From Deltaproteobacteria bacterium (GTDB lineage Bacteria; Desulfobacterota; Binatia; UBA9968; JAJDTQ01), in contig JAPPNE010000052.1 of assembly GCA_028818775.1 (NCBI GenBank), positions 66,697 through 130,696 of the forward strand: a stretch of 64,000 nt of DNA, in the 5' to 3' direction. Below, piece by piece: positions 11,566 to 59,628 of the stretch. The translations under genes and the position numbers were made by a program. Positions within the stretch are counted from its first letter, which is position 1. Every line of letters starts with the position of its first letter. The notes under the pieces were generated by a model that searched no databases, was not told where the DNA came from, and worked only from the letters and a program-made list of their open reading frames with translations.

Positions 11566-12909
<1,344 letters not shown>

Positions 12910-33209: not shown

Positions 33210-33238
33210 GCCACGACGATCATTGACGGTACGCCGCC

Positions 33239-34287: not shown

Positions 34288-35001
34288 TTATGACAGCCAA
34301 ACATGCCACACAGAGATCGGTCCCGGCTTATGTGTGGGTGGCGACTGCATGCTGTAAACAAAACGCCTGCCATGTCGTGAACACGCCAGATCGGAAGAAC
34401 CAAGTCCCACAACGACCGGGAACTCTTCTACTAGATAACTCGAAGGATCTTGCGTTGCAGCCCTCGACAAAAACGGTGTCAGGTTGGCGCTGATCGACGA
34501 TCCATCACGAACGTAGCCGATCATAAATGCTTCGCGGCTGCCCCACGCATAGTCACCGTCCACAAAGCGACGAAGGCCATGTTCACAGTACAAGGCTTCC
34601 GTCTTTGAGGTGGCAGCATCCAGTATCTTGGCTTCCGTGACGAGTGGAAACCGTCGTGTCCTGTCGGACAGATAAATAGATAGGTCGGGACGTTTCTCAA
34701 GATGTAGACCATTGAAACTTAGACTCTCCTTCCCTCGTGCGACGCAAAGGACAAGGTTACCCCAGAAGGGGTCCTGTTCGATCAGCCGATTGAGGCGCGC
34801 CTCCATCAAGGCAGTTACCTCCGGCTCGTTACCCGAGGCCACTGTAGCCGGCTTCTGTGTCCGGATATCATTGAAAGCCCGAAGCAACCCCTCCGCAATG
34901 ATTTCGAGGTGCACCTTCGCGATCTCCGGCAGTGGAAGCCGAAGGCCGCGAGTCAATTCGGCGATTTGATCCGGTCGCGGGCGAATTGCTGAGCCCTTCA
35001 T
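34288..35001 (-). CDS. Putative PD-(D/E)xK-fold restriction endonuclease, translationally coupled to the upstream methyltransferase
   Basis: From ATG 35001 (237 aa), ATGA-overlapping the methyltransferase stop. KRPDLSIYLSDRTRRFPLVTEAKIL has PD…x14…EAK spacing typical of PD-(D/E)xK motifs II/III, with acidic residues upstream (GKESLSF). Confidence 0.45.
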   Translation of the reverse strand: MKGSAIRPRPDQIAELTRGLRLPLPEIAKVHLEIIAEGLLRAFNDIRTQKPATVASGNEPEVTALMEARLNRLIEQDPFWGNLVLCVARGKESLSFNGLHLEKRPDLSIYLSDRTRRFPLVTEAKILDAATSKTEALYCEHGLRRFVDGDYAWGSREAFMIGYVRDGSSISANLTPFLSRAATQDPSSYLVEEFPVVVGLGSSDLACSRHGRRFVYSMQSPPTHKPGPISVWHVWLS

Positions 35002-38000: not shown

Positions 38001-38009
38001 CGGTCTCAC
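34998..38009 (-). CDS. Eco57I-family (gamma-class) N6-adenine DNA methyltransferase, 1003 aa, with large N- and C-terminal extra domains (Type IIG/IIS-like or PglX-like)
   Basis: In order: motif X-like GYYTPRLIADLMV, motif I DPAAGGGIFLLTAF, motif IV VIGNPPW. This is flanked by a ~280-aa N-region and a ~550-aa C-region (probable target recognition). GC is ~55-58% against ~69% in the flanks. Confidence 0.75.
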   Translation of the reverse strand: MRPMADVASSLIDFGADPTSLRLLDGDGPELLPYATLLTARRSGNTPLGVVEAVYEWQGTPLIFLVDSDSLEDDEQLHRVRRLLAMRGDAPYLGVVAPGHLSVYRIALDKKSLRQARVAWQLGDSARSVALARLGNIRPQSASRQRDWISGVVLNLLTGSTTEMIERYAVSDGDAVSLVGRALFTRFLADRNLLPDGFSSAASLFDTRELAEVTSNWLDETFNGDLLPLSENIFTTLPDGAYRALGDVLRRAPDSQLFLGWEQKWDNLDFAHIPVGVLSQAYELYLRNHAPRRQRREGGYYTPRLIADLMVRASFRALGREGVGKTAKILDPAAGGGIFLLTAFRELIAEHWRADKQRPDTNALRRILSNQIVGLDTNEAALRFAALGLYLASIELDPNPRPVDKLRFDNLRGTVLHRVTAEEESAGLGSLGPFVGAEHVGQYDLVIGNPPWASGTKLPDWDLVRQTVARIAADRKVTNASPPLPNEGLDLPFVWRAMEWAKPNGQIAFALHARLLFQQGDGMPEARQALFEALDVTSIINGVELRQTKVWPQVSAPFCILLAANRTPGTGGGFRFVTPRIEGSLNGAGSMRIDALNAEVVPSRQLIETPDILKILFRGTKADFAIVERIRASGFPTLGAFWRETIGVTEGGQLRGSGNGYQALRPSSRVRQGGDGRPGVDASYLWERPEITVASLASIFVDSEILNAFSLDRIHDPRSPDLFAGPLVVVHKSPPATTGRIGVAISEEGIVFNETFYGYSPCQHPDASMLVRYLALVLGSKLVTWLALVTSGEFGFEREVIEKATLDRIPLPNFHKLQPYQLVEIANLTDGLNSGAVSWHDVDEWVMRLYGLGPRDMQVIADTLEFNLPFATNQRNAQAVPSPDEKKRFCEILTRELTPWCERFGLTLTVRQIPSPEISPWQGIDVRTTFRGEGEAAKASDWEGLIRAADEAAASEVLVRDGTDGLLIGRLAQRRYWSETQARLLAQRIIWSHVDLLKGPATK

Positions 38010-44020: not shown

Positions 44021-45376
44021 ATGGAGCGTTTGCCGATGGATCGGGAGCTGGCGCTGGGGCTGCTGGCGCGGGCGAAGGACAAGGGCGCCTCCCAGGGCGA
44101 CGTGACGCTGATCGAGCGAGAGGGCGTGCAGGTGAAGGTGCGGCTCGGCGAGGTGGAGACCGTGAGCCAGGCGCACGAGATGCGCCTCGGGCTGCGCCTC
44201 TTCTTCGGTCAGAGCGCCGCCGCCACCTCCACCTCCGACCTGTCGCGCGCCTCGCTGGACCGCCTGGTTGACGAGACCTGCGCCATGGCCCGGGCCACGG
44301 CACGGGACGAATTCGGCGGCCTGCCGGAAGCCGGCGAGATGGCCGCCGAGGTGCCGGACCTGGACCTGCTGGACCAGGAGTCCCAGGGGCTCCCCATCGA
44401 GGACGGCATCGATGCCGCTCGCACGGCGGAGGAGCACGCGCTGCAATACGACCCGCGGGTGACCAACTCCGAGGGCGCCGAGTTTGCAAGTTCGTTCAAC
44501 CGCGTCATCCACGCCAATTCACAGGGCTTTGCCGGCGAGTACGCCACGTCCGGCTTTCATCTCTCCCTGGCCCCGGTGGCGACGTCCAACGGCTCCATGG
44601 AGCGGGACCACTGGTACACGGCCGCGCGCCGCCGCGACGCGCTGGATTCTCCGGAGGAGGTAGGCCGGGAGGCCGGCCGCCGCGTGGTCCGGCGGCTGGG
44701 CGCCCGCAAGGTGCGCAGCCGCGAGGTGCCGGTGGTCTTCGACGCGTCCATCGCCGGCACCCTGGTGCGGCACGTGGCCCAGGCAATTTCCGGCTACGTC
44801 CTCTATCAGCGCGCTTCCTTCCTGTGCGACCGGCTCGGGGAGCGCGTGGCGTCCGACCTCGTCCACATCGTCGACGACGGCACGATTCCGCGGGCCCTGG
44901 GGTCGCGCCCGTTCGACGCCGAGGGCGTCGGCGTCCAGCGCAAGGACGTGGTCGAGGCCGGCGTCCTGCGAAGCTACCTCCTGGACGCCTACAGCGCGCG
45001 CAAGCTCGGCGGCAAATCCACCGGCAACGCCGCGCGGGGCGTGGGGCAACCCTCGGCGGTTTCCCCCATGAACCTCCACCTCATCCCCGGCGAACACGGC
45101 CCCGAGGACATCATCGCCTCGGTGGAGGACGGCTTCTACGTCACCGAGCTCATGGGCTTCGGTTTCAACGCCGTCACCGGCAACTACTCCAGGGGCGCCG
45201 CCGGCATCTGGATCGAGAACGGCGAGCTCGCCTACCCCGTCTCAGAACTCACCATCGCCGGCAACCTCAACGACATGCTGAGCCGGATCGAGATGGTCGG
45301 CAACGACCTCCGCCCGCAGAGTCCGGTGGCCGCGCCCACGGTGAAGGTCGGGCGCATGACCGTGGCGGGGGAGTAG
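44021..45376 (+). CDS. pmbA: Metalloprotease PmbA/TldE
   Basis: From ATG 44021, 9 nt after the tldD stop. PmbA-family pattern, 451 aa, with no HExxH (the TldD partner). Confidence 0.8.
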   Translation: MERLPMDRELALGLLARAKDKGASQGDVTLIEREGVQVKVRLGEVETVSQAHEMRLGLRLFFGQSAAATSTSDLSRASLDRLVDETCAMARATARDEFGGLPEAGEMAAEVPDLDLLDQESQGLPIEDGIDAARTAEEHALQYDPRVTNSEGAEFASSFNRVIHANSQGFAGEYATSGFHLSLAPVATSNGSMERDHWYTAARRRDALDSPEEVGREAGRRVVRRLGARKVRSREVPVVFDASIAGTLVRHVAQAISGYVLYQRASFLCDRLGERVASDLVHIVDDGTIPRALGSRPFDAEGVGVQRKDVVEAGVLRSYLLDAYSARKLGGKSTGNAARGVGQPSAVSPMNLHLIPGEHGPEDIIASVEDGFYVTELMGFGFNAVTGNYSRGAAGIWIENGELAYPVSELTIAGNLNDMLSRIEMVGNDLRPQSPVAAPTVKVGRMTVAGE

Positions 45377-45523
45377 GTTCCAGCCAATCCAGCAATCCGC
45401 AATCTGCGGTCCACTTCAAGGGGTTTCGGGTGCTGCCGTGGTTTCTGCGGTGACGGCGCTGCTTGCGATTCCACGTTCCCAAGGATTCGGGTGCCTGTCA
45501 CCGGCGGCAACGGCTGGGGCGGG

Positions 45524-45811
45524 TCAGGTGATGTATCCCCATTTGCGGAAGGTGTCCTGGAGCGCTGGATCGCTCCGAAAAGCCTGGTAGTAGATGTATT
45601 CCGGCGCCAGGTCCGTCCCGTTGGGCCAGACGATAGTCTGAAGTTCTTCGTCCACACGAAACTGCCGGAATACCTCCGGATCCTTCAGCAACTCGAACAC
45701 CGGCCCGGTCAGCGCTTCCGCAAGATCCGCCACGCCTTCGCGGCCGTCATCGAAGCACACCTGCACGCGAAAGCCGTCGAGCGGCGTCGCCTTTGTCACG
45801 TGAAGAAACAT
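45524..45811 (-). CDS. DUF2442-domain protein
   Basis: MFLHVTKATPLDGFRVQVCFDDGREGVADL…VDEELQTIVWPNGTDLAPEYIY matches the DUF2442 pattern. Length is 95 aa. Confidence 0.6.
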   Translation of the reverse strand: MFLHVTKATPLDGFRVQVCFDDGREGVADLAEALTGPVFELLKDPEVFRQFRVDEELQTIVWPNGTDLAPEYIYYQAFRSDPALQDTFRKWGYIT

Positions 45812-45933
45812 GAGTCATTCCAGTGGGTCGATGGGATTCGGAGTTTCTTTTCTACGACACCTTTCCCAGTTATCCGATGGTCGTCCCAATACATGGCGAT
45901 GACAATTCCAAGGAATCTGCTGATAACCGGCAT
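45796..45933 (-). pseudogene. DUF4160-like short ORF (N-terminus conserved, C-terminal half divergent or truncated)
   Basis: Hand translation gives MPVISRFLGIVIAMYWDDH…, which matches the DUF4160 N-terminus (MPtISrFyGIvIrMY..DH). The expected PPHFH core is absent. This 45-aa ORF is not in the supplied track. It overlaps the DUF2442 start by 16 nt. Confidence 0.4.
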
Positions 45934-45954
45934 GTCGTCTCCCACCCCCTGCCG

Positions 45955-48900
45955 TCATGCCTGCTCGTTACGTCGAGCAGCCGTAGATAGCCTTCGGAAC
46001 GCTGGGCAATCAGCCAAGCCGGGCGCTAATGTCTTGACCCGGTCAAGAGCGTTGCTCAAGTCGTATGGCACGATCGCGTCCTGCTCTTCTCCAATGGTCA
46101 AATCCAGCAACGTAAGGAGTGCGGCGGCCTTTCGTTCATCGTTGACCGCCAACTGTAGCTTCGAGACGGCTTCACTTCCAGTTCCAACCTCGCCATAGAG
46201 CCCATACTCTAGTGTTGACCAGCAATCAAAGGGGACAAGGAAACGCTTCATCTCATCAACGGCTTCGGCAAAAGCCTCGCCCGAGGCGGCGGGGATATGG
46301 GACAACTCTCGGCTTGTGTCGCGTGTCGTCAAGTCGCTTTCTTGTGGCCACACGCTCCGAAAGAACGGCTTGACGGCTACATGAAACAGCTTTTCAACGG
46401 ATCGTATTTCTCCTTCTTGCGGTGGCCCTTCTTCCTGGAAGTACCGGATAGCGCAGGCTGCAAACAGACGCGTTTCGTCGTCTGCTGATCGGAGCATTTG
46501 TGACACGCGGGGTTCGGCCACCAAGGGCCTACGTTCGTCTCGGAACGCCGTCAACACTTCGATGACAAGGCAAGAAACAAGCGATTCCCGGGCTTCTCGA
46601 CCGAGGCGATGGTCAGTTGCCCTTTCAATCACCTTGTCACCGATGATTTCAAGTAGAGGCTTGCCGCTTCGACGTGCGGCCTTGCGCCAAAGTGCAATGG
46701 ATTGGAAGTCATCCGCCAACAACGGGTCCACCAGATATTGTTTCGTCCAGTCAGGGTCTGCGTTCTGGAAGAATGGCAAACGTTCCGCTAGTCGGCAGTG
46801 TGCCACTAGGCCGCTATGGTCGGAGGCGCTGATGATTCGATCTCGCATCTGCCGCGCAGGGCTGCCGTCGGAGAAGGGGCGGGCATCTTTGCCGACGGCT
46901 TGGCAGGCGGCCAGGAAGACTTCAATGAATTGTCCCGCTGGTGTGTTGAGAGTGTCGATATCCAGGGACTCTTGCTGGTCACCCGAAGAGTTGGTCAGGA
47001 TATGGTCCCGGTCGTTAGCGACGGCATTGGTCCTTTCGACTGCAATAGGCCAAGCTTGCAGCCAGACGGGCAAGCCGTGTTCTGATCGGATGACATATCG
47101 ACTCCAACTGAAGAGCCAGTGGCTGATACCCCAGATGGCTTCCGTAAGGTTCGTCTCCGACAGGTTCCTCAGCAGATACAGGATACGGTTTGCCTCATCT
47201 TGTGGCTGGGGTGGTGGTTCAAGACTCGGCGTCGGGGGAGATGGCGAATGAAGCGAAAGGAAACAATCCCAAAGGCGCGGAAACTCCTCCCCGGCCCTAG
47301 TGAATGATTCCAAGTCCGAGAGAAGGAGCACGGCACTACCGGCCCGTTGGAGCCAAGCTTTGGCGGAGTTGTCGATCCAATGAACTCCATCGTGTGACAG
47401 TTCCTCGTTCAGTGCCCGAAGGCGGGCCTCTCCTTCAAGCAGGTCATATGGAGTGTCGGCCGAGAGCCGCGGAACGGGATGCGCCTGTGCATCGAAAAAC
47501 CCGCCATCCACGCGCATGTCTTCGAGTTGGGGAAGTTCCTTGATTCGTTTGAGCAACCATCGGCGGGTTTTTGGCGCTATGATGCCGCCGGCGACTTCCA
47601 CTCGTTTGACTTCACGTGCGGCACAGTACCGTCTGCGAGTTTTGAGTTTGTGCGGCGGACCCTTGCACAAACGCTGGACAATCGTTTCCTGAACGTCCCG
47701 CCGAAGTTCCTTAACGCGTCTTGCCCTCAGTTCGGTGATCTCGGGGAATTCATCCAGACCCCAAAGCTCGTAGTCAGATAGTGTCACCAGGAAGTCACCG
47801 ACATCGTCAGCGCTTACCAACTGTGGATCCCGGGCGATTGCGGCCCATAGGCGCCGGTGGACGCCAGACCGCGACAACTGCCAGCCTGGGAAGAAGGGCG
47901 TGGCGGCCTGCTGATCGAGTTCGGAAATGCGGATGACAATTTCGTGAAGCAACTTGACCGACGGCGCGATTCCATCATTAAAGAGATCGGGCTCACCGCC
48001 CTCATGGCCGAATGCTTCTTCGACGTCTCTACCCTTCCCGTGGGGACGAACGAAATACACACGGTGAGGACTTTCCCAAGGCACCTCACGGCCTTCATCA
48101 GTCTTGTAGATCCGATTGATGACGTTGAGCCCGTATTGGACTGAAGATGCCAGCCCGTCTGCCAGTTCCTTCAGGAATTGTATTTCTGAAACCGTGCCTA
48201 TGTGGAGGTCGCCGTAGTCGTTCAGATTACCCAGGTTGACGCTCGTCAGGTTCGCCGACAGAAGGTCTTCAAAGATCTTTGGGTGTCGAGGCCTTTCCTC
48301 AATCGCTTTGACCTCCAGACGAGGCGCGAACAGATCCACAATCGCTGAAATCAGGGCGCCGGAACGCTCGCCTTTGCCGAGTCGATCACGGATCGTTACA
48401 AATGCCATCGCCGGATGGTCCCTGATCGGGCGATTAGACCAGCTTTCCTCGATCAAGCGCCATGCAGTCGCATAGGGTTCCTTCAACTCAGGACTGCCGT
48501 AATCGTTCAGTAGCTCGTCTATTGCGATCCGTTTGGTACTCCAGTTGGATTCTTTGAGCGCCCAATCGATCGTGGCTGGCTCAGCAAGCCGGTTCTTCAG
48601 AAACGTGGTCATGACTTGGGCGTGATGGCGGTCGGTCTCGCTCAACCCCGCCCATGAATGAATGGCGGTGGCTGGTCCGAACTTTTTTCCGGGCGTGGTC
48701 TCAATGATGGAATCCAGCCATCCGGGCTCGGCCTTCGCACCCGACGCCACACCTGCCAAGCGAATGCGTTCATTCGCATGCCCTCGCCTGAACAGGTGGT
48801 CGAACAGGTCACGATCAGCCTTGGGGGTGGCGGCTCTGCTCTCCCGTACGATCCGTCTTACCTCAACATCGACGGTTTTCGTCTTTCCGTTGATTGCGGA

Positions 48901-49896
48901 GAGTTTGGCCCACCGTTCAAGCGCATCGCGCAGCACGGAATGGTCTCCATTTCGAGCATCGTAGTGGATCGGGGTGATGCCCCGTGCCTTCCAGTCTTGC
49001 AATTCCACGGGGTCCCCAGAGCCAACGAAGGTAAACCGTTCTTTCAAATCGCTGAATCGGGCTCCGTCGGCGGCGACGGCGTTCAGCAGGTAGCGCATCG
49101 GCGGATCGTTGGCGCTATAGCCCGCCAGGACGAGATGGAAGAGGCGTGCGGCGTCGTAGATGAGATCAGGGACAATCCTCCGACGCAGATAGTATTCCCC
49201 GAGGTCCTGGTCCGACAACACGAGATCCGAGAAGCGAGCCGGATTCCGGTCCAAGGCTCCGTGAATATGGAGCACTCCAGCGAACTCCTTGCGCGTCGTG
49301 GGTCTCGGGATCGATCCCAACGCATAGGTTTGCACTGGGGAACCAAGGCGCTTGGCAGCGGCTTCGAGCAAGAGGTCAAAGTTGGTGGTCATGATCGTCG
49401 TGACGCCGCCGCGGTCGGCTAGGCGCATGAGCGCCCGATGTATTGGCGCCGGTTTGTCGCTTGCTTGGCGCAGCAGTTCCGCTACGGTGCTTCTGACCTT
49501 GCTCGTGATCTTGTTCTTTTCATGAGTTTGATCGTCCAGCCGGCGTTCAAGCATTCCCAAGACCACGTCGTACTCGCCGGCAACGAACCGCTTGACCTCT
49601 GCCTTTTGGTTATTCCTGAGCTTCGACCAACCCGGTTCTGTAGTGTCAAGTGCGCGGTTAGGAGTCTTCGGAAGGATTTCGTAGACGCTTGCATCAAGCC
49701 TTTCATAGACGTCGCGTACCAGTTCTCGGAAGTCAGGCAGCCCCGCAGGACGTGAGATACCCGCACCGCAGATGAAGAGTACTTCGCCCCGCGCATGTGC
49801 CAGAAGCAAGCGTTCCGGAATCTCCGGGAGGCCTGGGCTGAGCGAAACGGCGCGGTAAGCGTCGTCACCGTGATCGGAATGAGGTAAATTGCTCAT
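45955..49896 (-). CDS. Large (1313 aa) SIR2_2-domain protein, defence-associated sirtuin (DSR)-like
   Basis: The N-terminal ~330 aa carry SIR2_2/DHS-like motifs (LFICGAGISRPAGLPDF; VTTIMTTNFDLLLE; VLHIHGAL). These are followed by ~1000 aa with no recognised catalytic motif (helical/repeat-like). GC is ~57%. Confidence 0.65.
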   Translation of the reverse strand: MSNLPHSDHGDDAYRAVSLSPGLPEIPERLLLAHARGEVLFICGAGISRPAGLPDFRELVRDVYERLDASVYEILPKTPNRALDTTEPGWSKLRNNQKAEVKRFVAGEYDVVLGMLERRLDDQTHEKNKITSKVRSTVAELLRQASDKPAPIHRALMRLADRGGVTTIMTTNFDLLLEAAAKRLGSPVQTYALGSIPRPTTRKEFAGVLHIHGALDRNPARFSDLVLSDQDLGEYYLRRRIVPDLIYDAARLFHLVLAGYSANDPPMRYLLNAVAADGARFSDLKERFTFVGSGDPVELQDWKARGITPIHYDARNGDHSVLRDALERWAKLSAINGKTKTVDVEVRRIVRESRAATPKADRDLFDHLFRRGHANERIRLAGVASGAKAEPGWLDSIIETTPGKKFGPATAIHSWAGLSETDRHHAQVMTTFLKNRLAEPATIDWALKESNWSTKRIAIDELLNDYGSPELKEPYATAWRLIEESWSNRPIRDHPAMAFVTIRDRLGKGERSGALISAIVDLFAPRLEVKAIEERPRHPKIFEDLLSANLTSVNLGNLNDYGDLHIGTVSEIQFLKELADGLASSVQYGLNVINRIYKTDEGREVPWESPHRVYFVRPHGKGRDVEEAFGHEGGEPDLFNDGIAPSVKLLHEIVIRISELDQQAATPFFPGWQLSRSGVHRRLWAAIARDPQLVSADDVGDFLVTLSDYELWGLDEFPEITELRARRVKELRRDVQETIVQRLCKGPPHKLKTRRRYCAAREVKRVEVAGGIIAPKTRRWLLKRIKELPQLEDMRVDGGFFDAQAHPVPRLSADTPYDLLEGEARLRALNEELSHDGVHWIDNSAKAWLQRAGSAVLLLSDLESFTRAGEEFPRLWDCFLSLHSPSPPTPSLEPPPQPQDEANRILYLLRNLSETNLTEAIWGISHWLFSWSRYVIRSEHGLPVWLQAWPIAVERTNAVANDRDHILTNSSGDQQESLDIDTLNTPAGQFIEVFLAACQAVGKDARPFSDGSPARQMRDRIISASDHSGLVAHCRLAERLPFFQNADPDWTKQYLVDPLLADDFQSIALWRKAARRSGKPLLEIIGDKVIERATDHRLGREARESLVSCLVIEVLTAFRDERRPLVAEPRVSQMLRSADDETRLFAACAIRYFQEEGPPQEGEIRSVEKLFHVAVKPFFRSVWPQESDLTTRDTSRELSHIPAASGEAFAEAVDEMKRFLVPFDCWSTLEYGLYGEVGTGSEAVSKLQLAVNDERKAAALLTLLDLTIGEEQDAIVPYDLSNALDRVKTLAPGLADCPAFRRLSTAARRNEQA

Positions 49897-49926
49897 GACG
49901 GTTCAAGTGTAGCAGAGTAACCGCCC

Positions 49927-49970
49927 GTCAGCATGGCGGCAAGATGAGGTCAGCATGGCGGCAAGATGAG
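49927..49970. repeat. Perfect 22-bp tandem duplication (GTCAGCATGGCGGCAAGATGAG x2) in the divergent SIR2/mod intergenic region
   Basis: Read directly: 49927-49948 equals 49949-49970. Each unit contains the mini-ORF ATG GCG GCA AGA TGA. Confidence 0.9.
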
Positions 49971-50040
49971 GGTGGTAGGCCAAAGATGTTTGACGGCGGC
50001 AACGGTCGCGGCTTAACTTGAGGAAAGGAGAAATTCAGAG

Positions 50041-52797
50041 GTGGCAGGAAAGAAGAATACGGTGGGCCGAAAAGGAAAGACGCGCAGCGCCAGGAGTTAC
50101 GGGCATCCTGAGGCGGGTGCGCTACTCCGGCCGGACATCGGGATGCAGGCGCAGTTCCGCAAGAAGAAGCCGCTGGCCACCTACCGTTACGACACCTCGC
50201 TGTCTCCAGCCCTCGAATGGGACGGACAGAATTCCGGTCGGGAAGAGGGAGAAGCGAAAATCGCTTCGTTGGAGGACCGCATAGCGAGGCTGTCCGCGAT
50301 CGTCGATCCCGTCAACGGGGATCTCTCCGAAAGGGATGTCGCAAGGGCCAAGGAGGAGCTTGCCGCCGCCCGGGAAGACGCCACCGCGCTGAAGACGCTT
50401 TCCAAGCCCTTTCTCAACTGGGCTGGAAAGGCCGAACGGCTCTCCTTTGACGTGCCGACTCTGCCGTTGTTTGTGCACGAGCGTCTGTCCACGTCCGCGA
50501 TCCTGGAGACGTTGAAAGGGCATACCCGAGACCGTCAAGTGAACATGTTCGATCTGTTCGGGGAGAGCGATCTCCCGATCCACGATCGGCTGCTGAGGGC
50601 GTACGAGCATCAGAACGGGTGGGTGAACCGGCTGATCCTTGGCGACTCGCTGGTGGTGATGAACTCCTTACTCGGGTACGAGGGCGTGGGCGGTCAAGTG
50701 CAGACCATCTACATGGATCCGCCCTACGCCGTGAAGTTCGGGTCCAACTTTCAGCCCTTCGTGCGCAAGCGCGACGTCACCCATGGCGACGACGAGCACA
50801 TGGTGCGGGAGCCGGAGATGGTCCAGGCGTACCGGGACACCTGGGAACTCGGCCTGCATTCCTTCCTGACCTACCTGAGGGACCGGTTGCTGCTGGCGCG
50901 GGAGCTGCTCCATCCGTCCGGGAGCATCTTCGTCCAGATGTCCGATACCAATCTGCACCATGTCCGCGAGGTAATGGACGAGGTGTTCGGCGCGGAGTGC
51001 TTTGTCTCGCAGATCAGTTTCCAGACGACATCGGGATTTCAGACGAAGACGCTTGCGACCCTTGGTGATTTTATTCTGTGGTACGCGCGGGATCCGGAGA
51101 GGCTCAAGGTAAGGAAGTTGTTCGAGGAACAGCCCGTCGTGCTTGGTGAAGGCAACGCAAGATGGGTGCTTCTCCCGGACGGAAGCTACCGAGGAGTGAC
51201 CGCGGCCGAGAGGCGTGGAGAAGCGGCCGTACCAACAGAAAGCCGTCTTTATAGCCCGAGCGGAATGGAATCTCCTGGTTCACCGAGTCAACCGCAGCCG
51301 TTCGACTTCCAGGGTCGGAAGTTCGAACCGAATCACAATCGTCATTGGGCGGCCAATTATCCGATCGGTCTCGAACGCCTCGCTAGGGCAGGAAGAATAC
51401 ATGTTGCCGCCAATAGCTTGAGGTATCGCCGCTTCCCTTCAGATTTCCCATATAAGACCTTGGGCAATATTTGGACAGACACCATGACAGGAAGTTTCAC
51501 GGAGACGAAGTCCTACGTGGTGCAGACCAACCCCAAGGTAATCGAACGGTGCCTGCTGATGACATCCGACCCTGGCGATCTGGTATTCGATCCTACCTGC
51601 GGCTCGGGGACCACCGCGTATTGCGCGGAGAAGTGGGGGCGGCGTTGGATCACCACCGACACGTCGCGGGTGCCGCTTGCGCTCGCGCGCCAGCGCCTGC
51701 TCACCAGCACCTTCGAATTCTACCAGCTCAAGGAGCTGGGAAGGGGTCCGGCAGGAGGCTTCGAATATCGGCGCAGACAGAACGCCAAAGGAGAAGAAGT
51801 CGGCGGCATCGTGCCACACATCACCCTTGAATCCATCGCCAACGACGAGCCGGCAAAGGAGGAAGTGCTTGTTGACCGGCCGGAGACGGACGCTGGCGTC
51901 ACCCGCGTGAGCGGTCCGTTCTGTGTCGAGGCGACCATTCCGACGCCGGTTGATTGGGAAGGAGATGGTAAGGAAGACTCGGGCGATGCCTCCGCCGCCA
52001 AGGCTTATGCGAGTCACGTGAATCGCATGATCGCGGTGTTGCAGCATTCGCCGGTGCTCCGTCTCGGCGGCGGTCAGACCGTAACCCTTTCCAAGGTGCG
52101 TCTGCCCGCGCGGACCATGAGCTTGTCGGCCGAGGCCTCGGTCGAAGGCTATGGAGAGCAGACGGCTGCCATCGTCTTCGGTCCGGAGAACGGCGCAGTC
52201 TCGGAGTTGCTGGTGTTCGAGGCGGCGCGTGAGGCATATGCCAAGGGGTACGGCCACCTCTATGTCATCGGCTTCGCCATACAGCCTGATGCGCGGCGCC
52301 TGATTGAGGGTTGCGAGCAGACGGTCGGCGTACCCGCGACTTATGTGCAGGCGAGCATGGATTTGTTGATGGGAAATCTGCTCAAGAACCTGCGGTCGAG
52401 TCAAATCTTCTCAGTATGCGGTCTCCCGGACGTGCGGATCAGAAAATCTGCCAAGCAAGGCTATCAGGTCGAGCTTCGTGGTCTCGACGTGTTCGATCCG
52501 GTCGCGATGGACTCGGATCATCGGCAGGGGAGTGATGTCCCGGCGTGGTTCCTCGACACGGATTACAATGGACTCTGCTTCCACGTGTGCCAGGCGTTCT
52601 TCCCACGGACTTCGGCATGGGAAGGTCTCAAGCGTTCACTCCAAGGCGAGTTCGAGGACACCGTGTGGGCGCATCTGTCGGGGACTGTCAGCACTCCGTT
52701 CCAGGCTGGCGAGCACGGGCAGGTGGCAGTGAAAGTGGTCGATGATCGCGGAAACGAACTGATGGTCGTCAAGCCACTCTCGGAGGCGGATGGGTGA
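50041..52797 (+). CDS. mod: Type III R-M-type (beta-class) N6-adenine DNA methyltransferase Mod, unusually long (918 aa)
   Basis: Motif IV MDPPYA (aa ~224) precedes motif I FDPTCGSGTTAYCAEKWGRRWITTD (aa ~505), which is the beta-class order. An N-terminal coiled-coil-like segment and a ~350-aa C-terminal extension are present. GTG start with an AGGAG RBS. Confidence 0.75.
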   Translation: MAGKKNTVGRKGKTRSARSYGHPEAGALLRPDIGMQAQFRKKKPLATYRYDTSLSPALEWDGQNSGREEGEAKIASLEDRIARLSAIVDPVNGDLSERDVARAKEELAAAREDATALKTLSKPFLNWAGKAERLSFDVPTLPLFVHERLSTSAILETLKGHTRDRQVNMFDLFGESDLPIHDRLLRAYEHQNGWVNRLILGDSLVVMNSLLGYEGVGGQVQTIYMDPPYAVKFGSNFQPFVRKRDVTHGDDEHMVREPEMVQAYRDTWELGLHSFLTYLRDRLLLARELLHPSGSIFVQMSDTNLHHVREVMDEVFGAECFVSQISFQTTSGFQTKTLATLGDFILWYARDPERLKVRKLFEEQPVVLGEGNARWVLLPDGSYRGVTAAERRGEAAVPTESRLYSPSGMESPGSPSQPQPFDFQGRKFEPNHNRHWAANYPIGLERLARAGRIHVAANSLRYRRFPSDFPYKTLGNIWTDTMTGSFTETKSYVVQTNPKVIERCLLMTSDPGDLVFDPTCGSGTTAYCAEKWGRRWITTDTSRVPLALARQRLLTSTFEFYQLKELGRGPAGGFEYRRRQNAKGEEVGGIVPHITLESIANDEPAKEEVLVDRPETDAGVTRVSGPFCVEATIPTPVDWEGDGKEDSGDASAAKAYASHVNRMIAVLQHSPVLRLGGGQTVTLSKVRLPARTMSLSAEASVEGYGEQTAAIVFGPENGAVSELLVFEAAREAYAKGYGHLYVIGFAIQPDARRLIEGCEQTVGVPATYVQASMDLLMGNLLKNLRSSQIFSVCGLPDVRIRKSAKQGYQVELRGLDVFDPVAMDSDHRQGSDVPAWFLDTDYNGLCFHVCQAFFPRTSAWEGLKRSLQGEFEDTVWAHLSGTVSTPFQAGEHGQVAVKVVDDRGNELMVVKPLSEADG

Positions 52798-54443
52798 TCC
52801 GCACGGTTCGCATCCGGGGCTTCAAGCGTTTCGATGATGTGGAGTTCCGTCTGCCGGGGCACATGGTCCTGGCCGGTCCCAACAATACCGGGAAAACGAC
52901 GGTGCTTCAGGCTATCGCTTCATGGTCCCTTGCCTTGCGGCGGTGGCGTGAGCTCAACGACTTCAATCCTCGACAGGGTTATACGCGTGCGCCTATCGCG
53001 AGGCAGGCGTTTGCGGCGGTTCCTCTTCGGAGTTTCGATCTGATGTGGAAAGACCGCGAATATTGGGATCAGATCGAGATCGAGATCCGGCATGACGCCG
53101 GCTGGTCCGTGACGATGGAGCTTATCGCGGACAGCACTGAGCAGATCTATGTCCGCCCCAAGGTGGATGTGCCGGCTGATACGCTGCGCAAACTGGACCT
53201 TGGCGTGGTCTACGTACCTCCGATGACCGGATTGGAGACAAACGAACGGCTATTTCAGCCTGCTGCCATCGAGCAGATCCTCGGCCTCAGCCGTCCCGGC
53301 GAAGTGTTGCGCAATCTGCTGGTCGTCGCGAGCCTCGATGATGCCGCTTGGGCTGCAATTCAAGACTCTATAGGGAAGCTCTTCGGCTATGAGCTGCTAG
53401 TCCCTGACGCCAGTGGGCCGTATATCCGGGCCGAGTACAGAATGACGAAAGGGGGGCAGCCCCTTGATATCGCCAGCGCGGGTAGCGGGTTTCAACAGGT
53501 GCTGATGCTGCTCACGTTTCTCAATACGAGGGAGGGTTCGGTTCTCCTTCTCGACGAGCCCGATGCGCATCTTCACCTGATCCTGCAGGACGCCATCTAC
53601 TACGAGCTTCGCACCGTTGCCGCCCGTCATAGATCCCAGCTCGTCATTGCGACACACTCCGAGGTGATAATCAATTCGGTCGAGCCTCGCGAGCTATGTG
53701 TCACACTCAACGAGCCCCGGATGGTTGCCGACAATGAGGAGCGCAGCCGACTGATTAAATCACTTGGTGTACTCAGTAACGCAGATGTGATGCAGGCGTT
53801 TGAGGTCCGCGGTGTGCTGTACGTCGAAGACTACACGGACATCAACATCCTGCGGACCTGGGCCACGAACCTGAAACACAAGGCCGAATCCCTGCTCACT
53901 ACCGAGTTGATGTGGAAGCCGGTGGTTTTCCAGGCGCAGGAAGGGCGGCCAGGGATCAAGGCGCGAGACCATTTCGACGCGCTACGACTCGTGCGGGACG
54001 AATTACCTGGTCTGGAACTGCTCGACGGTGACGCTCACCCCGCGGTACCGGAGACAGAAATCACCCGGACGGGCTTGCAGCGGCTTCGCTGGCGACGTTA
54101 CGAGATTGAGAGTTATCTTGTTCACCCGCATGCGCTGGCCCGCTTCGTCGAGGCAGAAGTCGGAGTCGGCTCCGCTGAGCTGCATGTCCAGGACATGCTC
54201 ACCTACTGGCGCAACGAATTTCCTCCGGCGGTAATGGATGACCCGCTGGGAGAGCACGAGTTCCTGAACGCAACGAAAGCGCGCTTGCGACTGCTTCCCC
54301 CTTTGCTGGACGCCGCGGGACTCCACGGGCTACCACACACTCGCTATCATGAGATCGCGGCGCTGATGCTCCCGGAGGAGATTCATCCAGAAGTGGTCGA
54401 GAAACTCGACGCCATTTGCCGTGCTTTCGGGGTCGAGCCATGA
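52794..54443 (+). CDS. OLD/AAA_21-family ABC-type ATPase with a C-terminal TOPRIM/DUF4435-like region (Gabija GajA / PARIS AriAB / class-2 OLD-like)
   Basis: GTG 52794 overlaps the mod TGA (GTGA), and the stop overlaps the res ATG (ATGA). Walker A GPNNTGKTT, signature-like ASAGSGFQQVL, Walker B LLLDEPDAHLH and ATHSE are present. The C-terminal region has GVLYVEDYTDINIL (E…DxD-like). Confidence 0.6.
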   Translation: MIRTVRIRGFKRFDDVEFRLPGHMVLAGPNNTGKTTVLQAIASWSLALRRWRELNDFNPRQGYTRAPIARQAFAAVPLRSFDLMWKDREYWDQIEIEIRHDAGWSVTMELIADSTEQIYVRPKVDVPADTLRKLDLGVVYVPPMTGLETNERLFQPAAIEQILGLSRPGEVLRNLLVVASLDDAAWAAIQDSIGKLFGYELLVPDASGPYIRAEYRMTKGGQPLDIASAGSGFQQVLMLLTFLNTREGSVLLLDEPDAHLHLILQDAIYYELRTVAARHRSQLVIATHSEVIINSVEPRELCVTLNEPRMVADNEERSRLIKSLGVLSNADVMQAFEVRGVLYVEDYTDINILRTWATNLKHKAESLLTTELMWKPVVFQAQEGRPGIKARDHFDALRLVRDELPGLELLDGDAHPAVPETEITRTGLQRLRWRRYEIESYLVHPHALARFVEAEVGVGSAELHVQDMLTYWRNEFPPAVMDDPLGEHEFLNATKARLRLLPPLLDAAGLHGLPHTRYHEIAALMLPEEIHPEVVEKLDAICRAFGVEP

Positions 54444-57400
54444 ACCCGCACGAAGTTTCCGAGCCAATCCTGAACGCACCCTTCGATGAACCCAGGGAGC
54501 ACTGGTGGATTACGGAGCACGATCCGCCGGAGCGGCGTCCGGGCCGGCGTCCAGCCATGTATTTTTACCGCCGCCCGGGCAGCGAGCCGTCGTTGGAGCA
54601 GCAGGGAACCGGCACTGCCATTGAGTTGAAGCTGGTGAACCGAGTCCGTGCCAAGCTTGCCGAATGGCGGCCCTTGGCGCTGCGCGGCGAAGGCGGCGTG
54701 ACCCGAACCACCGTAGAGTTGTTGCGTTACTGGCGGCAGGAAGGACGGAGACACCGGTTGTTCTTTGCCCAGATCGAGGCCGCCGAGACGATCATTTTCC
54801 TTACCGAGGCCCGCCCTGATTTCCTGCAGGGGATCCGTGTCCCGCTCGACGAACCGGGCGAGGAGGCCCGGGCGGACGGGTTCCGAGCCTTTCGTCGCTA
54901 CGCTTGCAAGATGGCTACGGGCACGGGAAAGACGACCGTCATGGGAATGCTCGCTGCTTGGAGCATTCTCAACAAGGTCGCAGCCCGTGGGGACGCTCGT
55001 TTTTCGGACGTGGTGTTGATCGTGTGTCCCAACGTCACGATCCGAAACCGGCTTGAGGAACTCAAGCCGCAAGCCGGTGAGGCCAGCCTTTACCGCACGC
55101 GTGACCTCGTCCCGTCACACCTCATGCCGCAGCTCGCACGTGGACACGTGCTTGTCACCAACTGGCACGTGTTTGAGCCGAAGACCGCGCAGGTCGCCGG
55201 CCAGTCGGCAAAGGTCCTCCGCGCCGGACGCGAGATCCGCACGAGGGAGACCATACGTATTGGCCCCAAGACAACCACGGCGCGCGGCATCCGTTACCTG
55301 ACTTTGGCCGATCTCGAACGGCAGGCGGCCGCTGGCCTGATTGCCGTTCGTGATGAACAGCGGGACCGGCAAGGCAATCTCAAGTCGGTTTCCGTGGAAT
55401 CGTTCCGGTACGTCGAGAGTGATGCCAAGCTCATCGACCGCGTTCTCGGGCGAGAAATCGGAGGCAAGGGCAACATTCTGGTCATGAACGACGAAGCACA
55501 TCACGCGTATCGGCTCAGGCGTGTTGAGCCAGAAGAGGGCGAGGAGGATCTGTTCGGCGAAACCGATGACAGCGAGGAGTTTTATAGGGAAGCGACGGTA
55601 TGGGTCGACGGGCTTGACCGTGTCCACAAGCATCGCGGTATCAACCTGTGTGTAGACCTCTCTGCCACCCCCTACTACCTGGGCCGGGTCGGACAGGACG
55701 CCAACCGGCCGTTTCCGTGGGTTGTCAGTGATTTCGGACTTGTCGACGCCATCGAGTCGGGACTCGTCAAGATTCCGCAGCTTGCGGTTCGGGACACAAC
55801 CGGCAGCCACATCCCTGGCTACTTCAACATCTGGCGCTGGATCCTGCCGAGATTGACCCCTGCGGAGCGCGGCGGCCGGCGGGGAAGCGTGAAGCCCGAA
55901 GCGGTCCTCAAGTATGCGCATGTTCCAGTCGCCATGTTAGGTGGACTGTGGGAGTTGCTACGCGAGGAGTGGAGCAAACGGGATGGTGAAAGCCGGCCGC
56001 CCGTATTCATCATCGTGTGCAAGAACACCGCGCTCGCCAAGGTCATTTACCAGTGGCTCGCCGAGGACAAGGCGCCGGTGGGGATTCCGCCCGCGCGTCT
56101 TGAAGGTCTGCGGAACACGGACGGGAACCTTTGCACCATACGTGTGGACTCCAAGGTTGTGCGCGAGTCCGACAGCGGACAGACGAGGTCCGATGCGGAC
56201 CAATGGATGCGCGTGACGCTGGATACAGTCGGTAAGACTGACTGGCCGCGGGACGGACAGAGACGGCCCATCTACCCTGAAGGCTTCGAGACGCTGGCCA
56301 ACAAACTCGAACGACCACTTCATCCACCTGGCCGTGACGTAAGGTGCATTGTGAGCGTCGGAATGCTCACCGAGGGTTGGGACTGCAACACCGTGACCCA
56401 TATCGTCGGACTTCGCCCGTTCATGTCGCAGTTGCTTTGTGAACAGGTGGTCGGGCGAGGGCTGCGGAGGTCCAGCTATGCCGTGGGGGAGGACGGGAAA
56501 CTCGGTGAGGAAGTCGCGAAGATCTTCGGTGTACCGTTCGAGATCGTGCCCCTGAAGGAGAATCCCCCGGACAACGGAGCGCCGCCACCTCCGAAGACTT
56601 GGCGAATACGGGCAGTGCCCGAGAAGGCAGCTCTGGAGATCCGGTTCCCCCGCGTCGAGGGTTACACGCAAGGGATCAGAAACCGCGTAAAGGTGGACTG
56701 GGAAAGCATCGCGCCTCTGCGTCTCGACCCCATGGACATCCCACCTGAAGTGGAGATGAAGGCAGGCCTTCCGAGCAACACCGGGCGGCCTTCGCTGGTG
56801 GGTCCTGGACAACTTGAACGCGTCGATCTCAACCCGTACCGCAACAATACACGGTTGCAGCAATTGGTGTTCGAGATGGCGCGGGATCTGACACGGGATT
56901 ATCGGGAGCAACCGGGTTGCGACGCGCCTCCTCACGTACTGTTTACACAACTCGCCACCATCGTGGATCGCTACATCAGGGAAAAGGTGGTCCCTGTCGA
57001 ACCGGCGCGAGACATCGATGCGTTCCTCTCCCCTTGGTACGGTTGGCTGGTGGAACGCCTTGTCGCCGCCGTCCGCCCGGACCATGGCAACGGAGACGAG
57101 GCAGAACTCCCGCGCTACGAGAGCGGCCGCGGTCCCGGATCTACAGCCGAGGTCGACTTCGAGACGCGGCGAGTGCCCTATCCCGTCGTCAAGAGTCACG
57201 TCAACGCGGTCGTGCCCGACACCGCGAAGTGGGAGCAGTCCGCCGCCTACCGTTTGGACACTCACGAACTCGTCCACTCGTTCGTCAAAAACGCTGGTCT
57301 CGGTTTCGCGATCCCCTACCTGCACAACGGCGAACAGCACGAATACCTGCCGGATTTTATCGTCCGGTTGACCAGAGACACCGCCCACTACCTGATTCTT

Positions 57401-57562
57401 GAAACCAAGGGCTATGACCCCATAGCCCAAGTCAAGTCACAAGCAGCCCACCGGTGGGTCAACGCTGTAAACGCAGACAGGCGATTCGGCACATGGAGCT
57501 ACGAGTTGGTGACGGACATGGGTAAGGTGGGCGAAGCCGTGAATCGGGCAGCCATGTCGTGA
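54440..57562 (+). CDS. res: Type III restriction enzyme Res subunit (SF2 helicase plus C-terminal PD-(D/E)xK nuclease)
   Basis: Walker A MATGTGKTT, DEAHH box and motif VI-like GMLTEGWDCNTVTHIVGLRP are present. The C-terminal nuclease motif is YLPDFIVRL…LILETKG. Length is 1048 aa. Confidence 0.75.
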   Translation: MNPHEVSEPILNAPFDEPREHWWITEHDPPERRPGRRPAMYFYRRPGSEPSLEQQGTGTAIELKLVNRVRAKLAEWRPLALRGEGGVTRTTVELLRYWRQEGRRHRLFFAQIEAAETIIFLTEARPDFLQGIRVPLDEPGEEARADGFRAFRRYACKMATGTGKTTVMGMLAAWSILNKVAARGDARFSDVVLIVCPNVTIRNRLEELKPQAGEASLYRTRDLVPSHLMPQLARGHVLVTNWHVFEPKTAQVAGQSAKVLRAGREIRTRETIRIGPKTTTARGIRYLTLADLERQAAAGLIAVRDEQRDRQGNLKSVSVESFRYVESDAKLIDRVLGREIGGKGNILVMNDEAHHAYRLRRVEPEEGEEDLFGETDDSEEFYREATVWVDGLDRVHKHRGINLCVDLSATPYYLGRVGQDANRPFPWVVSDFGLVDAIESGLVKIPQLAVRDTTGSHIPGYFNIWRWILPRLTPAERGGRRGSVKPEAVLKYAHVPVAMLGGLWELLREEWSKRDGESRPPVFIIVCKNTALAKVIYQWLAEDKAPVGIPPARLEGLRNTDGNLCTIRVDSKVVRESDSGQTRSDADQWMRVTLDTVGKTDWPRDGQRRPIYPEGFETLANKLERPLHPPGRDVRCIVSVGMLTEGWDCNTVTHIVGLRPFMSQLLCEQVVGRGLRRSSYAVGEDGKLGEEVAKIFGVPFEIVPLKENPPDNGAPPPPKTWRIRAVPEKAALEIRFPRVEGYTQGIRNRVKVDWESIAPLRLDPMDIPPEVEMKAGLPSNTGRPSLVGPGQLERVDLNPYRNNTRLQQLVFEMARDLTRDYREQPGCDAPPHVLFTQLATIVDRYIREKVVPVEPARDIDAFLSPWYGWLVERLVAAVRPDHGNGDEAELPRYESGRGPGSTAEVDFETRRVPYPVVKSHVNAVVPDTAKWEQSAAYRLDTHELVHSFVKNAGLGFAIPYLHNGEQHEYLPDFIVRLTRDTAHYLILETKGYDPIAQVKSQAAHRWVNAVNADRRFGTWSYELVTDMGKVGEAVNRAAMS

Positions 57563-57664: not shown

Positions 57665-58876
57665 ATGACCTGGGAACCTGTCTGGGCACTACCGAATATT
57701 GACTTGGACAAACCTGTCGAGAGTCCAACCTTTGCGCTCGTTCCTGCTTCGGATCCCCGTGTCCAATTTCTGGAAAAGGAACATCGGAATTTCCGAATCT
57801 TCATGAGTCGGTTCCAGGATCCGCATGGGCATCCCATTCGGCCTACTCTCATAATTCGTCGCACCGATGTTGCCGAAAATTTCAGGGGGGCGGATGTAGC
57901 TGCCAGTTTTCGTGATGTCCTTGTCGCCTGTACCGTCCCACTTGCGAGATCCCTGGACATCATCTACGACAACAGTCGTGACAGAGTCCGATATGGCAGT
58001 TTCTTTTGGGTCTACCCTTGGATGCTTGATCGAAGCTACGAACGGATCATTGCGCATACGCCAGCAATACTGGCCCTGCACGATGTGAATCATTTGAGAG
58101 GACAGTCGTCCCCGGAACTGGCGCCAACGACGTTGCGACGGCGAGACCTTGATGAGCCGCTGTTACAGGAACTTCTCCGCCGCTGGACAGCACGTTATGA
58201 AACCATTTCACCGAAATGGGCGGATGTCGCGCTTTTTCGATCTCTGAATATGGCGAACCAAGCCTGTCTTCTTCCGGCGGGCGCCGATGCTGTTATGCAC
58301 GACTACGGGAGAATAATCGCCTTGTGGACAGCCGCCTGTGAGATTCTTGCTCATCCCGGAGGCGACGGACAAGCTAACCTAAGGAAGGTGTTTGAACTGC
58401 TGCGGAGAATACCCTGGGTGGACCAAAAATGCGGGCATCGGCGATATCTGATCCGACACAAGAAACGGACAGATCGAGAGAATCTGGCTGGTTGGCTTTA
58501 TTGGCGCATCTACTGCTGCCGCAATGATTTTCTTCACGGCAACCCGGTTGCGATTGAGAATTTACTCACTCCCAACTCCCGCCGTGCACTCGACCATCAC
58601 GCGGCTACTCTATATCGGTTGGCGCTGTCCTCCTTTCTGCGCTTGGCATGGAGTGAACCCTTGCCGGCAAGTGACGACGCCGACATTGTTGCGGAATATG
58701 TCGCAAGAAAAATGCAGTTCCAAGAACCACAAGTGGGATGTGAGGAGGCCTTGAGATTGTGTCGAGTGTCGGTTGCTCAACAACGCCGAGCTCGAAGGAA
58801 AGCGATTGAGAGGAGGCGGAGGATGGCCTTCTCAATGAACCTAGGACAGAATCGGACGGGACACGCACGACCGTGA
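57665..58876 (+). CDS. Hypothetical 403-aa protein with a HEPN-like Rx4H motif (possible Abi-type effector); ~53% GC
   Basis: No family was recognised. CCRNDFLHGNPV fits the HEPN Rx4-6H signature. GC is markedly lower than any neighbour. It follows res after a 100-bp AT-richer spacer. Confidence 0.35.
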   Translation: MTWEPVWALPNIDLDKPVESPTFALVPASDPRVQFLEKEHRNFRIFMSRFQDPHGHPIRPTLIIRRTDVAENFRGADVAASFRDVLVACTVPLARSLDIIYDNSRDRVRYGSFFWVYPWMLDRSYERIIAHTPAILALHDVNHLRGQSSPELAPTTLRRRDLDEPLLQELLRRWTARYETISPKWADVALFRSLNMANQACLLPAGADAVMHDYGRIIALWTAACEILAHPGGDGQANLRKVFELLRRIPWVDQKCGHRRYLIRHKKRTDRENLAGWLYWRIYCCRNDFLHGNPVAIENLLTPNSRRALDHHAATLYRLALSSFLRLAWSEPLPASDDADIVAEYVARKMQFQEPQVGCEEALRLCRVSVAQQRRARRKAIERRRRMAFSMNLGQNRTGHARP

Positions 58877-59013: not shown

Positions 59014-59628
59014 CTACGAGGACATGCGGAACAATAGAAACACGACAATCGCAAGCACCAAACCGATCACCGTGGCCGCGCTCAGGTGGCGTTCGATGAG
59101 TGTGCGGACCGGGGGACCGAAGTACCAGAGGAGCGTGGCCTCGACGTAGAAGCGGAAGCCGCGGGATAGCAACGAGGCCAGGACGAAAACGCCCAGGTCA
59201 AGGCGGGCGGCACCGCACGCGACGGCCACCAGCTTGTAGGGGAGCGGGGTCAGGGCGCCGGCGACGACGATCCATGCGCCCCATTCGCGCCGGTACGTCT
59301 CGAATGCCTCAAGCTTTCCCGCATACCCCCACAGAGCAAGCAGAGGCTCACCCACGGCCTCGAAAAGGAAATAGCCGATGGCGTATCCGGCGAGGCCGCC
59401 GGCCGTCGACGACAGGGTGGAGATGCCGGCGAAGGTCCAGGCCCTGGCGCGCCGGGCCAGCACCATGGGGATGAGAAGGAGATCCGGCGGAACCGGGAGA
59501 AAGAGACTCTGGAGAAAGCACACGCCGGCCAGCGCCCAGACGGCGCGCCGCGTTGCTGCGCTACGGATGGTCCAGTCGTAGAGTCGGTTGAGCGTGCGGG
59601 AGTCCGTCCCCGCGGTCGAGTGGGTCAT
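59014..59628 (-). CDS. DedA/YqaA-family (SNARE-associated) membrane protein
   Basis: Multi-TM protein with a DedA-like core (FLQSLFLPVPPDLLLIPMVLA…). Confidence 0.6.
   Translation of the reverse strand: MTHSTAGTDSRTLNRLYDWTIRSAATRRAVWALAGVCFLQSLFLPVPPDLLLIPMVLARRARAWTFAGISTLSSTAGGLAGYAIGYFLFEAVGEPLLALWGYAGKLEAFETYRREWGAWIVVAGALTPLPYKLVAVACGAARLDLGVFVLASLLSRGFRFYVEATLLWYFGPPVRTLIERHLSAATVIGLVLAIVVFLLFRMSS

Follow-up and report, generated by a model that had tools for sequence, protein, structure and literature searches.

DSR2 senses the tail tube protein, whereas ThsA is activated by a small-molecule signal through its SLOG/STALD domain and KomC by filament formation with partner proteins. 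DSR1 depletes nicotinamide adenine dinucleotide (NAD+) on infection; in Bacillus subtilis this depletion is transient and the culture does not collapse (bioRxiv 10.1101/2021.12.14.472415). The Escherichia coli protein, EcDsr1, has a unique activator in the major capsid protein of the phage, which also triggers Avs7; the sensors of Dsr1 and Avs7 are homologous (PMC13581612). Here we describe a gene from a Deltaproteobacteria bacterium of the Binatia, found in a stretch of 64,000 nucleotides (hereafter the window; contig JAPPNE010000052.1, positions 66,697 to 130,696). The gene is a single open reading frame (ORF) at 45955..49896 on the minus strand, with an ATG start and, from the ORF list and its translation, a product of 1313 amino acids. 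This product is identical to NCBI MDE0029013.1, from a Deltaproteobacteria metagenome-assembled genome (MAG), where it is named only 'SIR2 family protein'.

An earlier note on this DNA had proposed a DSR-like candidate, which we are able to narrow to DSR1, as distinct from DSR2 and ThsA; the sensor is homologous to that of DSR1 and not to that of DSR2. Judged from its sequence, the gene, in the defence island of an uncultured bacterium of high GC content, is a real defence gene and a divergent member of DSR1, not a new kind of system; the PADLOC Dsr1 models already match it.

The effector domain and kinship with DSR1

The N-terminus of the protein folds as a sirtuin, as the earlier note had supposed. 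In the AlphaFold2 (AF2) model of residues 1-420 (predicted local distance difference test, pLDDT, 89.5; predicted template-modelling score, pTM, 0.89) the sirtuin fold is seen, and Pfam SIR2_2 matched residues 167-310 with an E-value of 1.4e-17 (64.5 bits; cutoff 24.5). The best matches of this model in a Foldseek search of the PDB were the SIR2 domain of DSR2 (8wy9_C, template-modelling (TM) score 0.73, target-normalised), KomC and ThsA, which are NADases; a PDB sequence search with the 1313-amino-acid protein gave weak SIR2 matches and nothing else. The three motifs that had marked the ORF as a SIR2_2 protein, GAGIS, TTNFD and HIHG, were all located. In the NAD-binding glycine loop, G44, G46 and S48 are invariant among 48 clade members; T170, T171, N172, F173 and D174 are each at least 90% conserved, both in the clade and in an alignment that adds DSR1-like proteins; and H212 and G213 are invariant across 66 sequences, DSR1-like proteins included. 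TTNFD aligns with the TTNYD of ThsA (8wc0) and KomC (9v0g), H212 aligns with the histidine of the 'mHG' or 'fHG' motif in the same two proteins, and the position of H212 is that of H171, which is mutated in the DSR2 structures of the Foldseek match list. The candidate catalytic asparagine and histidine of a sirtuin, N172 and H212, are thus both present and conserved, and neither of the conditions that the note had named for refutation held.

The PADLOC Dsr1 models were the best for this protein by at least 45 orders of magnitude (PDLC02183, E 2.8e-58; PDLC04167, E 4.7e-55; these being E-values taken without PADLOC's coverage thresholds). Two other sets of profiles, NCBIfam and the alignments described next, likewise pointed to DSR1. 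To place the protein further, an alignment of 48 clade members (A1) was set against an alignment of 35 more distant DSR1-like proteins of ~1220 amino acids, P0119 included (A2). The two were joined by hhalign with a probability of 100% (E 1e-129) over 1205 columns, residues 18-1313 against 4-1223, and a hidden Markov model of A2 covers the 1313-amino-acid protein as a single domain, residues 22-1310. Because A2 had been taken from matches to the query, an independent, bona fide Dsr1 was sought, and this was a 1275-amino-acid ORF, adjacent to the integrase in an Stx2c prophage of E. coli, which reaches 2059 bits on NF041818, the NCBIfam Dsr1 equivalog model. Between A1 and this E. coli prophage Dsr1, hhalign again gave a probability of 100% (E 7.7e-61), over 1191 columns, 21-1312 against 4-1274, at 21% identity. 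An alignment that runs from end to end in this way points to a DSR1 homologue over the entire length, but one of a distant subfamily; on these comparisons we class the 1313-amino-acid protein as a distant subfamily member of DSR1 and, by the NCBI threshold, as no equivalog.

Relatives of the protein numbered 212 at E<=1e-3 in the protein database, many more than chance would give and the majority of them full length, and matches were present in 202 of 185,579 species-representative genomes. The clade is drawn mainly from Alphaproteobacteria, Latescibacterota, Nitrospirota, Desulfobacterota and Binatia; a phage genome collection contained no members of it, the one find there being canonical EcDsr1 in the Stx2c prophage. 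A large and widespread DSR1 subfamily is therefore overlooked by the annotation 'SIR2 family protein' and by the strict NCBI Dsr1 model.

The sensor half and its two-gene relatives

For structure prediction the protein was divided into two overlapping pieces, each supplied with a family alignment. The pLDDT fell below 50 at residues 404-420 of the N-terminal model and at 64-72 of the C-terminal model, which correspond to residues 404-412 of the protein, and this linker is the sole disordered segment common to both models. The remainder, residues 413-1313, was confidently modelled as a HEAT/ARM-like helical solenoid (pTM 0.60). Pfam, NCBIfam and PADLOC gave no enzymatic domain for residues ~340-1313, which agrees with the statement in the earlier note that the C-terminal part carries no enzymatic motif; nor was a Walker A motif found anywhere in the 1313-amino-acid protein, or a match to an AAA/NACHT family in the same three collections. 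The note had also likened the C-terminus to those of DSR1 and DSR2 together, and here the two have to be separated: homology to the DSR1 sensor extends over the full length, but there is none to the C-terminal domain of DSR2.

Typical close relatives consist of a SIR2 gene of ~400 amino acids and a sensor gene of ~905-910 amino acids that overlap by 4 nt; at one Latescibacterota locus the SIR2 and sensor ORFs abut in the same frame. This two-gene form was found in 73/85 loci, and also in most of the best 150 of the 719 representatives of sensor clusters at 50% identity. The SIR2 genes of the split relatives stop at approximately query residue 405-408, and sensor-only proteins align from ~414, so that the gene break coincides with the disordered linker 404-412 of the window protein; the helical extension that follows the SIR2 domain (residues 336-403) is part of the SIR2 subunit in these relatives. 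Both halves of the split systems match the corresponding parts of the Dsr1 models, and RefSeq names them 'SIR2 family protein' and 'hypothetical protein'. The same system thus alternates between a fused and a two-gene form, breaking exactly at the linker, and the existence of split forms indicates that sensor and SIR2 effector are able to communicate as separate polypeptides. One split DSR1-like locus (L020; 43% identity) is on a 6.2-kb contig, at the very low coverage of 0.48x, of a Methanosarcinales archaeon MAG (JAIWHF010000146.1), and this would be either an inter-domain transfer or a binning artefact.

A conserved partner gene was looked for by all-vs-all clustering of neighbouring ORFs across ~80 loci; no family recurred at over 8 loci, nor did any keep a fixed position. 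The suggestion that the gene could be a stand-alone system accordingly holds for the fused copy, which has no conserved neighbour, but not for most of its close relatives, which use two genes.

When the sensor region was placed in a neighbour-joining tree with the DSR1-like clade as root, fused proteins made up the basal lineages, and the small fused clade of the window was nested among split forms, with ~16 parsimony changes of state; as this tree carries no support values, the direction of change between fused and split forms is no more than suggestive. A tentative extension, which we consider possible but would not expect to be correct, is that the clade forms a distinct DSR1 subfamily that is normally of two subunits, encoded by overlapping genes, that the window gene is a secondary re-fusion, and that its faster-evolving sensor (~20% identical to EcDsr1) is directed not at the major capsid protein but at some other component of the phage. 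In that event, the split and fused pairs would be a natural system for the control of a SIR2 NADase by a DSR sensor in trans.

The ratio of non-synonymous to synonymous substitution rates (dN/dS) for the SIR2 gene is 0.24-0.28 against two orthologues, which shows purifying selection, as would be expected of a functional gene. For the restriction-modification (RM) genes of the cassette that it shares with a neighbouring operon, which encodes a methyltransferase (Mod), an ATPase and a restriction endonuclease (Res), the ratio is 0.06-0.10, the SIR2 gene being ~3 times faster at non-synonymous sites. Within the protein, dN/dS is lowest in the SIR2 domain (0.16-0.19) and reaches 0.29-0.34 in sensor residues 561-1313 in both comparisons; for residues 341-560 it is 0.28 versus orthologue L003 and only 0.18 versus L004. 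This pattern is compatible with a rapidly adapting recognition surface in the sensor, and a sensor half that evolves faster than its effector is what would be expected of a surface that recognises phage.

Proposed action and competing explanations

With a SIR2 fold, conserved catalytic residues, full-length Dsr1 homology, no conserved partner gene, purifying selection and a horizontal-transfer signature (see below) all observed at this locus, we consider it quite probable that the gene encodes a single-chain sensor-effector of the DSR1 family, acting alone, in which a phage protein triggers NAD+ hydrolysis; the NADase activity, autoinhibition, trigger and outcome for the cell are proposed by analogy with EcDsr1. 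In the uninfected cell the solenoid of ~900 residues would keep the N-terminal SIR2 domain inactive. During infection the solenoid would bind a phage protein, most likely a structural one such as the major capsid protein (as for E. coli Dsr1), and this binding would release or assemble the SIR2 domain, which could then hydrolyse NAD+ to ADP-ribose and nicotinamide by way of N172 and H212. The resulting depletion of NAD+ would stop phage replication, with death of the cell optional. The link to the neighbouring Mod-ATPase-Res operon would be one of co-transfer in a single mobile defence cassette, with no functional dependence. The known picture of DSR1 action is left unchanged by these results.

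Several points weigh against this proposal. On NF041818, which was NCBIfam's only strong match, the protein reaches 254.9 bits in three stretches, against a cutoff of 1400 (among its relatives, P0086-P0099 reach ~505-560 bits and P0119 reaches 1264.8); this score, together with the ~21% identity to EcDsr1, means that the specificity of the trigger, and even the mode of activation, may differ. When the sensor model was compared with solved structures only a generic HEAT/ARM resemblance was found, and a bilobed form of the Avs7 type, which is reported for EcDsr1, would be no more than putative here. Finally, with its sharp borders and shared promoter region, the four-gene cassette makes some coupling to the RM-like operon conceivable.

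Such coupling would make the SIR2 protein and Mod-ATPase-Res one four-gene system, with NAD+ depletion serving, for example, as a back-up for failed restriction, and with co-regulation from the region between the two. The SIR2 and Mod genes are divergent, as had been noted, with the Mod start at 50041 and a gap of 144 bp; the neighbour, described in the note as a Type III R-M operon, is an operon of three genes with an ATPase between mod and res. The SIR2 gene and this trio form a block of 11.6 kb (about 45926/45971 to 57540/57549) that two further metagenomic genomes, of which one is a Binatia MAG, share at 84% (L003) and 80% (L006) DNA identity; the borders of the block lie at the two outer stop codons, with different flanks in all three genomes. 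The intergenic region is conserved as well, and in the window it carries an exact tandem duplication of the 22-bp unit GTCAGCATGGCGGCAAGATGAG at 49927-49970 (0 expected by chance), the unit being single in L003 and L006; this lineage-specific duplication could have changed an operator or promoter element between the divergent genes, or created a further one. A promoter and terminator scan of 45300-50200 gave counts no higher than those in shuffled sequence, and no site in the intergenic region, whether a consensus sigma-70 promoter or any other. However, the RM genes stand beside a SIR2 relative in only 2 of ~80 loci, those of the two closest relatives, and 3/3 other genomes with an 80-87% identical Res have the trio but no SIR2 gene, two facts that together argue for co-travel and not for mutual dependence. 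In addition, the trio is very widespread, Res has a very large, highly conserved family of its own (>5500 relatives, many at 80% identity or more), and the evolutionary rates of the two partners are about three-fold apart. A four-gene SIR2-RM system was tried as our principal explanation, on account of the sharp borders of the block, and was dropped after the relatives of both partners had been checked; we now regard it as unlikely.

The nature of the SIR2 activity, and the integrity of the gene, can be questioned in a similar way. The SIR2 superfamily includes deacylases and ADP-ribosyltransferases, and weak, sub-threshold matches to CobB-type models and to Pfam SIR2 were found over the N-terminal glycine loop, so the domain might act in one of these two ways on a target, of the host or of the phage, that the solenoid brings to it, instead of hydrolysing NAD+. 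We think this quite unlikely: the domain is of the SIR2_2 type, and the classical sirtuin deacylase (Sir2/CobB, PF02146), rejected as a candidate, gives just 22.3 bits (cutoff 24) over residues 44-81 only; residues 1-420 hold a single cysteine (C43), and the Cys4 zinc module of classical deacylating sirtuins is therefore absent; the best structural matches (DSR2, KomC and ThsA) are all defence NADases; and the homologous DSR1 depletes NAD+ (bioRxiv 10.1101/2021.12.14.472415). Were the gene instead in decay or already inactive, perhaps a two-gene system that was fused by accidental read-through and lost its regulation or function, this would agree with the two-gene state of most close relatives and with the nesting of the fused clade among split forms in the neighbour-joining tree. 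Yet the ORF of 3942 nt is intact with all motifs conserved, five fused orthologues exist at 68-81% identity to the protein, the dN/dS given above indicates constraint, and canonical Dsr1 is fused too, which makes decay very unlikely. A single-chain DSR1-family NADase that acts alone is the explanation that we retain.

Genomic surroundings and comparison with known systems

The features of the gene and of the neighbouring operon are collected in Table 1.

Table 1. Positions in the window of the DSR1-family gene, its parts and the adjoining operon
Feature	Coordinates	Strand	Evidence
Complete CDS, DSR1-family protein	45955..49896	-	1313 aa + stop; ORF list, translation
SIR2 (SIR2_2, DHS-like NAD-binding) effector domain, residues ~22-335	48892..49833	-	Pfam, AF2 model, Foldseek
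GAGIS NAD-binding glycine loop, residues 44-48	49753..49767	-	coordinates checked by translation
TTNFD motif, residues 170-174, candidate catalytic Asn N172	49375..49389	-	coordinates checked by translation
HIHG motif, residues 210-213, candidate catalytic His H212	49258..49269	-	conservation and alignment
Helical extension, residues 336-403	48688..48891	-	helices 339-400 modelled at pLDDT >90
Disordered linker, residues 404-412	48661..48687	-	pLDDT <50 in both models
C-terminal alpha-solenoid sensor region, residues 413-1313	45958..48660	-	structure model
Divergent intergenic region, 144 bp, presumed promoters	49897..50040	.	sequence
Mod-ATPase-Res operon, separate co-travelling system	50041..57562	+	Pfam/PADLOC/NCBIfam matches
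Mod methyltransferase	50041-52797	+	
AAA_21/AAA_15 ATPase (MAD3/PtuA-like), 549 aa, between mod and res	52794-54443	+	
BPTD_3080-family restriction endonuclease (Res)	54416-57562	+	NF046055 1023.6 bits, cutoff 800

The GC content of the SIR2 gene is 57.3% (62.6% at third codon positions), close to the ~57%, well under the host, given in the earlier note, and is set against 70.4% in the adjacent tldD-like gene; the window itself has 66-71% across its first 10 kb and a mean of 64.3% overall. A GC content of 57% versus ~70% in the flanking core genes, with relatives on mobile elements, is a signature of horizontal transfer. A search for tRNA-linked integration found no tRNA gene within 20 kb of the SIR2 gene. 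Among the relatives, one from Mesorhizobium lies in an island that also encodes an integrase, a D5 primase and a small terminase, another is in a region that resembles a prophage and contains portal and capsid genes, and one from Bradyrhizobium is on a conjugative plasmid, between insertion sequence elements. At the Mesorhizobium erdmanii locus (L001; AXAE01000015.1, 1-10730) the split pair stands at the end of the island, in the company of an integrase, an HTH_17 protein, a D5_N/DUF5906 primase, a Terminase_2 small terminase and a resolvase; this gene set recalls a phage satellite, of which the SIR2 and sensor pair may be cargo. In Latescibacterota, DSR1-like genes at four loci (L007, L053, L063 and L068) are set amid the same very large ORFs, one of ~1000-1200 amino acids directly upstream and two of ~1100 and ~1200 amino acids downstream, and these loci may represent a lineage-specific multi-gene defence island. 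The Mod-ATPase-Res trio was seen also at L086, L087 and L088.

The SIR2 gene is followed immediately, in the same orientation, by a 95-amino-acid DUF2442 ORF (45524-45811, minus strand; Pfam E 2.5e-13), before which stands a 49-amino-acid ORF (45796-45945, minus strand) that has no Pfam match, is too short, and has an N-terminus, MPVISRFLGIVIAMYWDDH, that resembles the usual DUF4160 partner of DUF2442; the two, both outside the conserved cassette, may be a truncated gene pair. On the other side, directly after the Res gene and likewise outside the 11.6-kb cassette, is a 403-amino-acid ORF (57665-58876, plus strand) with the lowest GC content of the island (53.8%). It had no match in Pfam, PADLOC or NCBIfam; it has >736 relatives of ~390 amino acids, of which Nitrobacter hamburgensis Nham_3827 (45% identity) is named 'Apea-like HEPN domain-containing protein' in UniRef, and it may be a further defence gene.

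A second island of low GC content (0.56-0.60) lies ~8 kb away, and contains a 1003-amino-acid Type IIG-like restriction-methyltransferase (34998-38009, minus strand; N6_Mtase/Eco57I; PADLOC REase_MTase_IIG E 8.6e-25) alongside an HTH_17 protein (33136-34203, plus strand). The core genes trpE/trpG (anthranilate synthase) and tldD/pmbA stand between this island and that of the SIR2 gene. In L003 the cassette is on the opposite side of the VTT gene (12568-13155) relative to tldD (18623-19982), as compared with the window (VTT at 59026-59613, tldD at 44021-45381), and the interval between tldD and VTT there holds two AAA_14/DUF4143 ATPase genes and a 722-amino-acid gene instead of the cassette. 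The region of tldD and VTT looks like a variable hotspot of gene insertion.

Considering the described systems in turn, DSR2 of B. subtilis (cryo-EM structures 8wy8 and 8w56) provides the best structural match for the SIR2 domain (Foldseek E ~4e-11, TM up to 0.73 on SIR2-only chains) and resembles the window protein in joining a SIR2 NADase to a long helical sensor of a phage protein. It differs in that there is no sequence similarity outside SIR2: the 1313-amino-acid protein matched no DSR2 sequence in the PDB at E<=1 and no Dsr2 model in PADLOC, and the sensor model did not have the C-terminal domain of DSR2 among its best structural matches. ThsA and KomC share the SIR2_2-type catalytic domain, with catalytic Asn and His aligned; in comparison with ThsA, however, no SLOG domain was detected in the window protein by Pfam or PADLOC, the PADLOC ThsA matches being confined to residues 128-275, within the SIR2 part, and the clustering of neighbours, which was not aimed at ThsB/TIR genes in particular, gave no recurrent family; in comparison with KomC no partner gene is conserved at the ~80 loci of the relatives. 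Avs7 is connected through its sensor, which is reported to be homologous to that of Dsr1 (PMC13581612), itself homologous to the window sensor; but Avs7 is a STAND nucleoside triphosphatase (NTPase), and the window protein has no STAND NTPase or Walker A motif. A STAND antiviral ATPase was rejected as a candidate, there being no Walker A motif and no AAA/NACHT match. The window protein is neither DSR2 (the sensor is another one), nor ThsA (no SLOG), nor a classical sirtuin, nor a STAND protein.

Closest to the window sensor, at 40-47% identity, are the split DSR1-like operons of Mesorhizobium erdmanii, Pseudomonas sp. TH41, Xanthomonas arboricola and Bradyrhizobium japonicum plasmid p1S06B; their gene pairs are collinear with the window protein, but effector and sensor are separate polypeptides where the window gene is fused. 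From canonical DSR1 the window protein's clade is separate, mostly of two genes and only ~21% identical to EcDsr1. Even so, the likeness to DSR1 extends to a length of ~1270-1310 amino acids, an N-terminal SIR2_2 domain with GAG(I/V)S, TTNFD and HxHG motifs, a helical sensor of ~900 amino acids with no NTPase, and a one-gene form that is found on mobile elements, EcDsr1 itself adjoining a prophage integrase.

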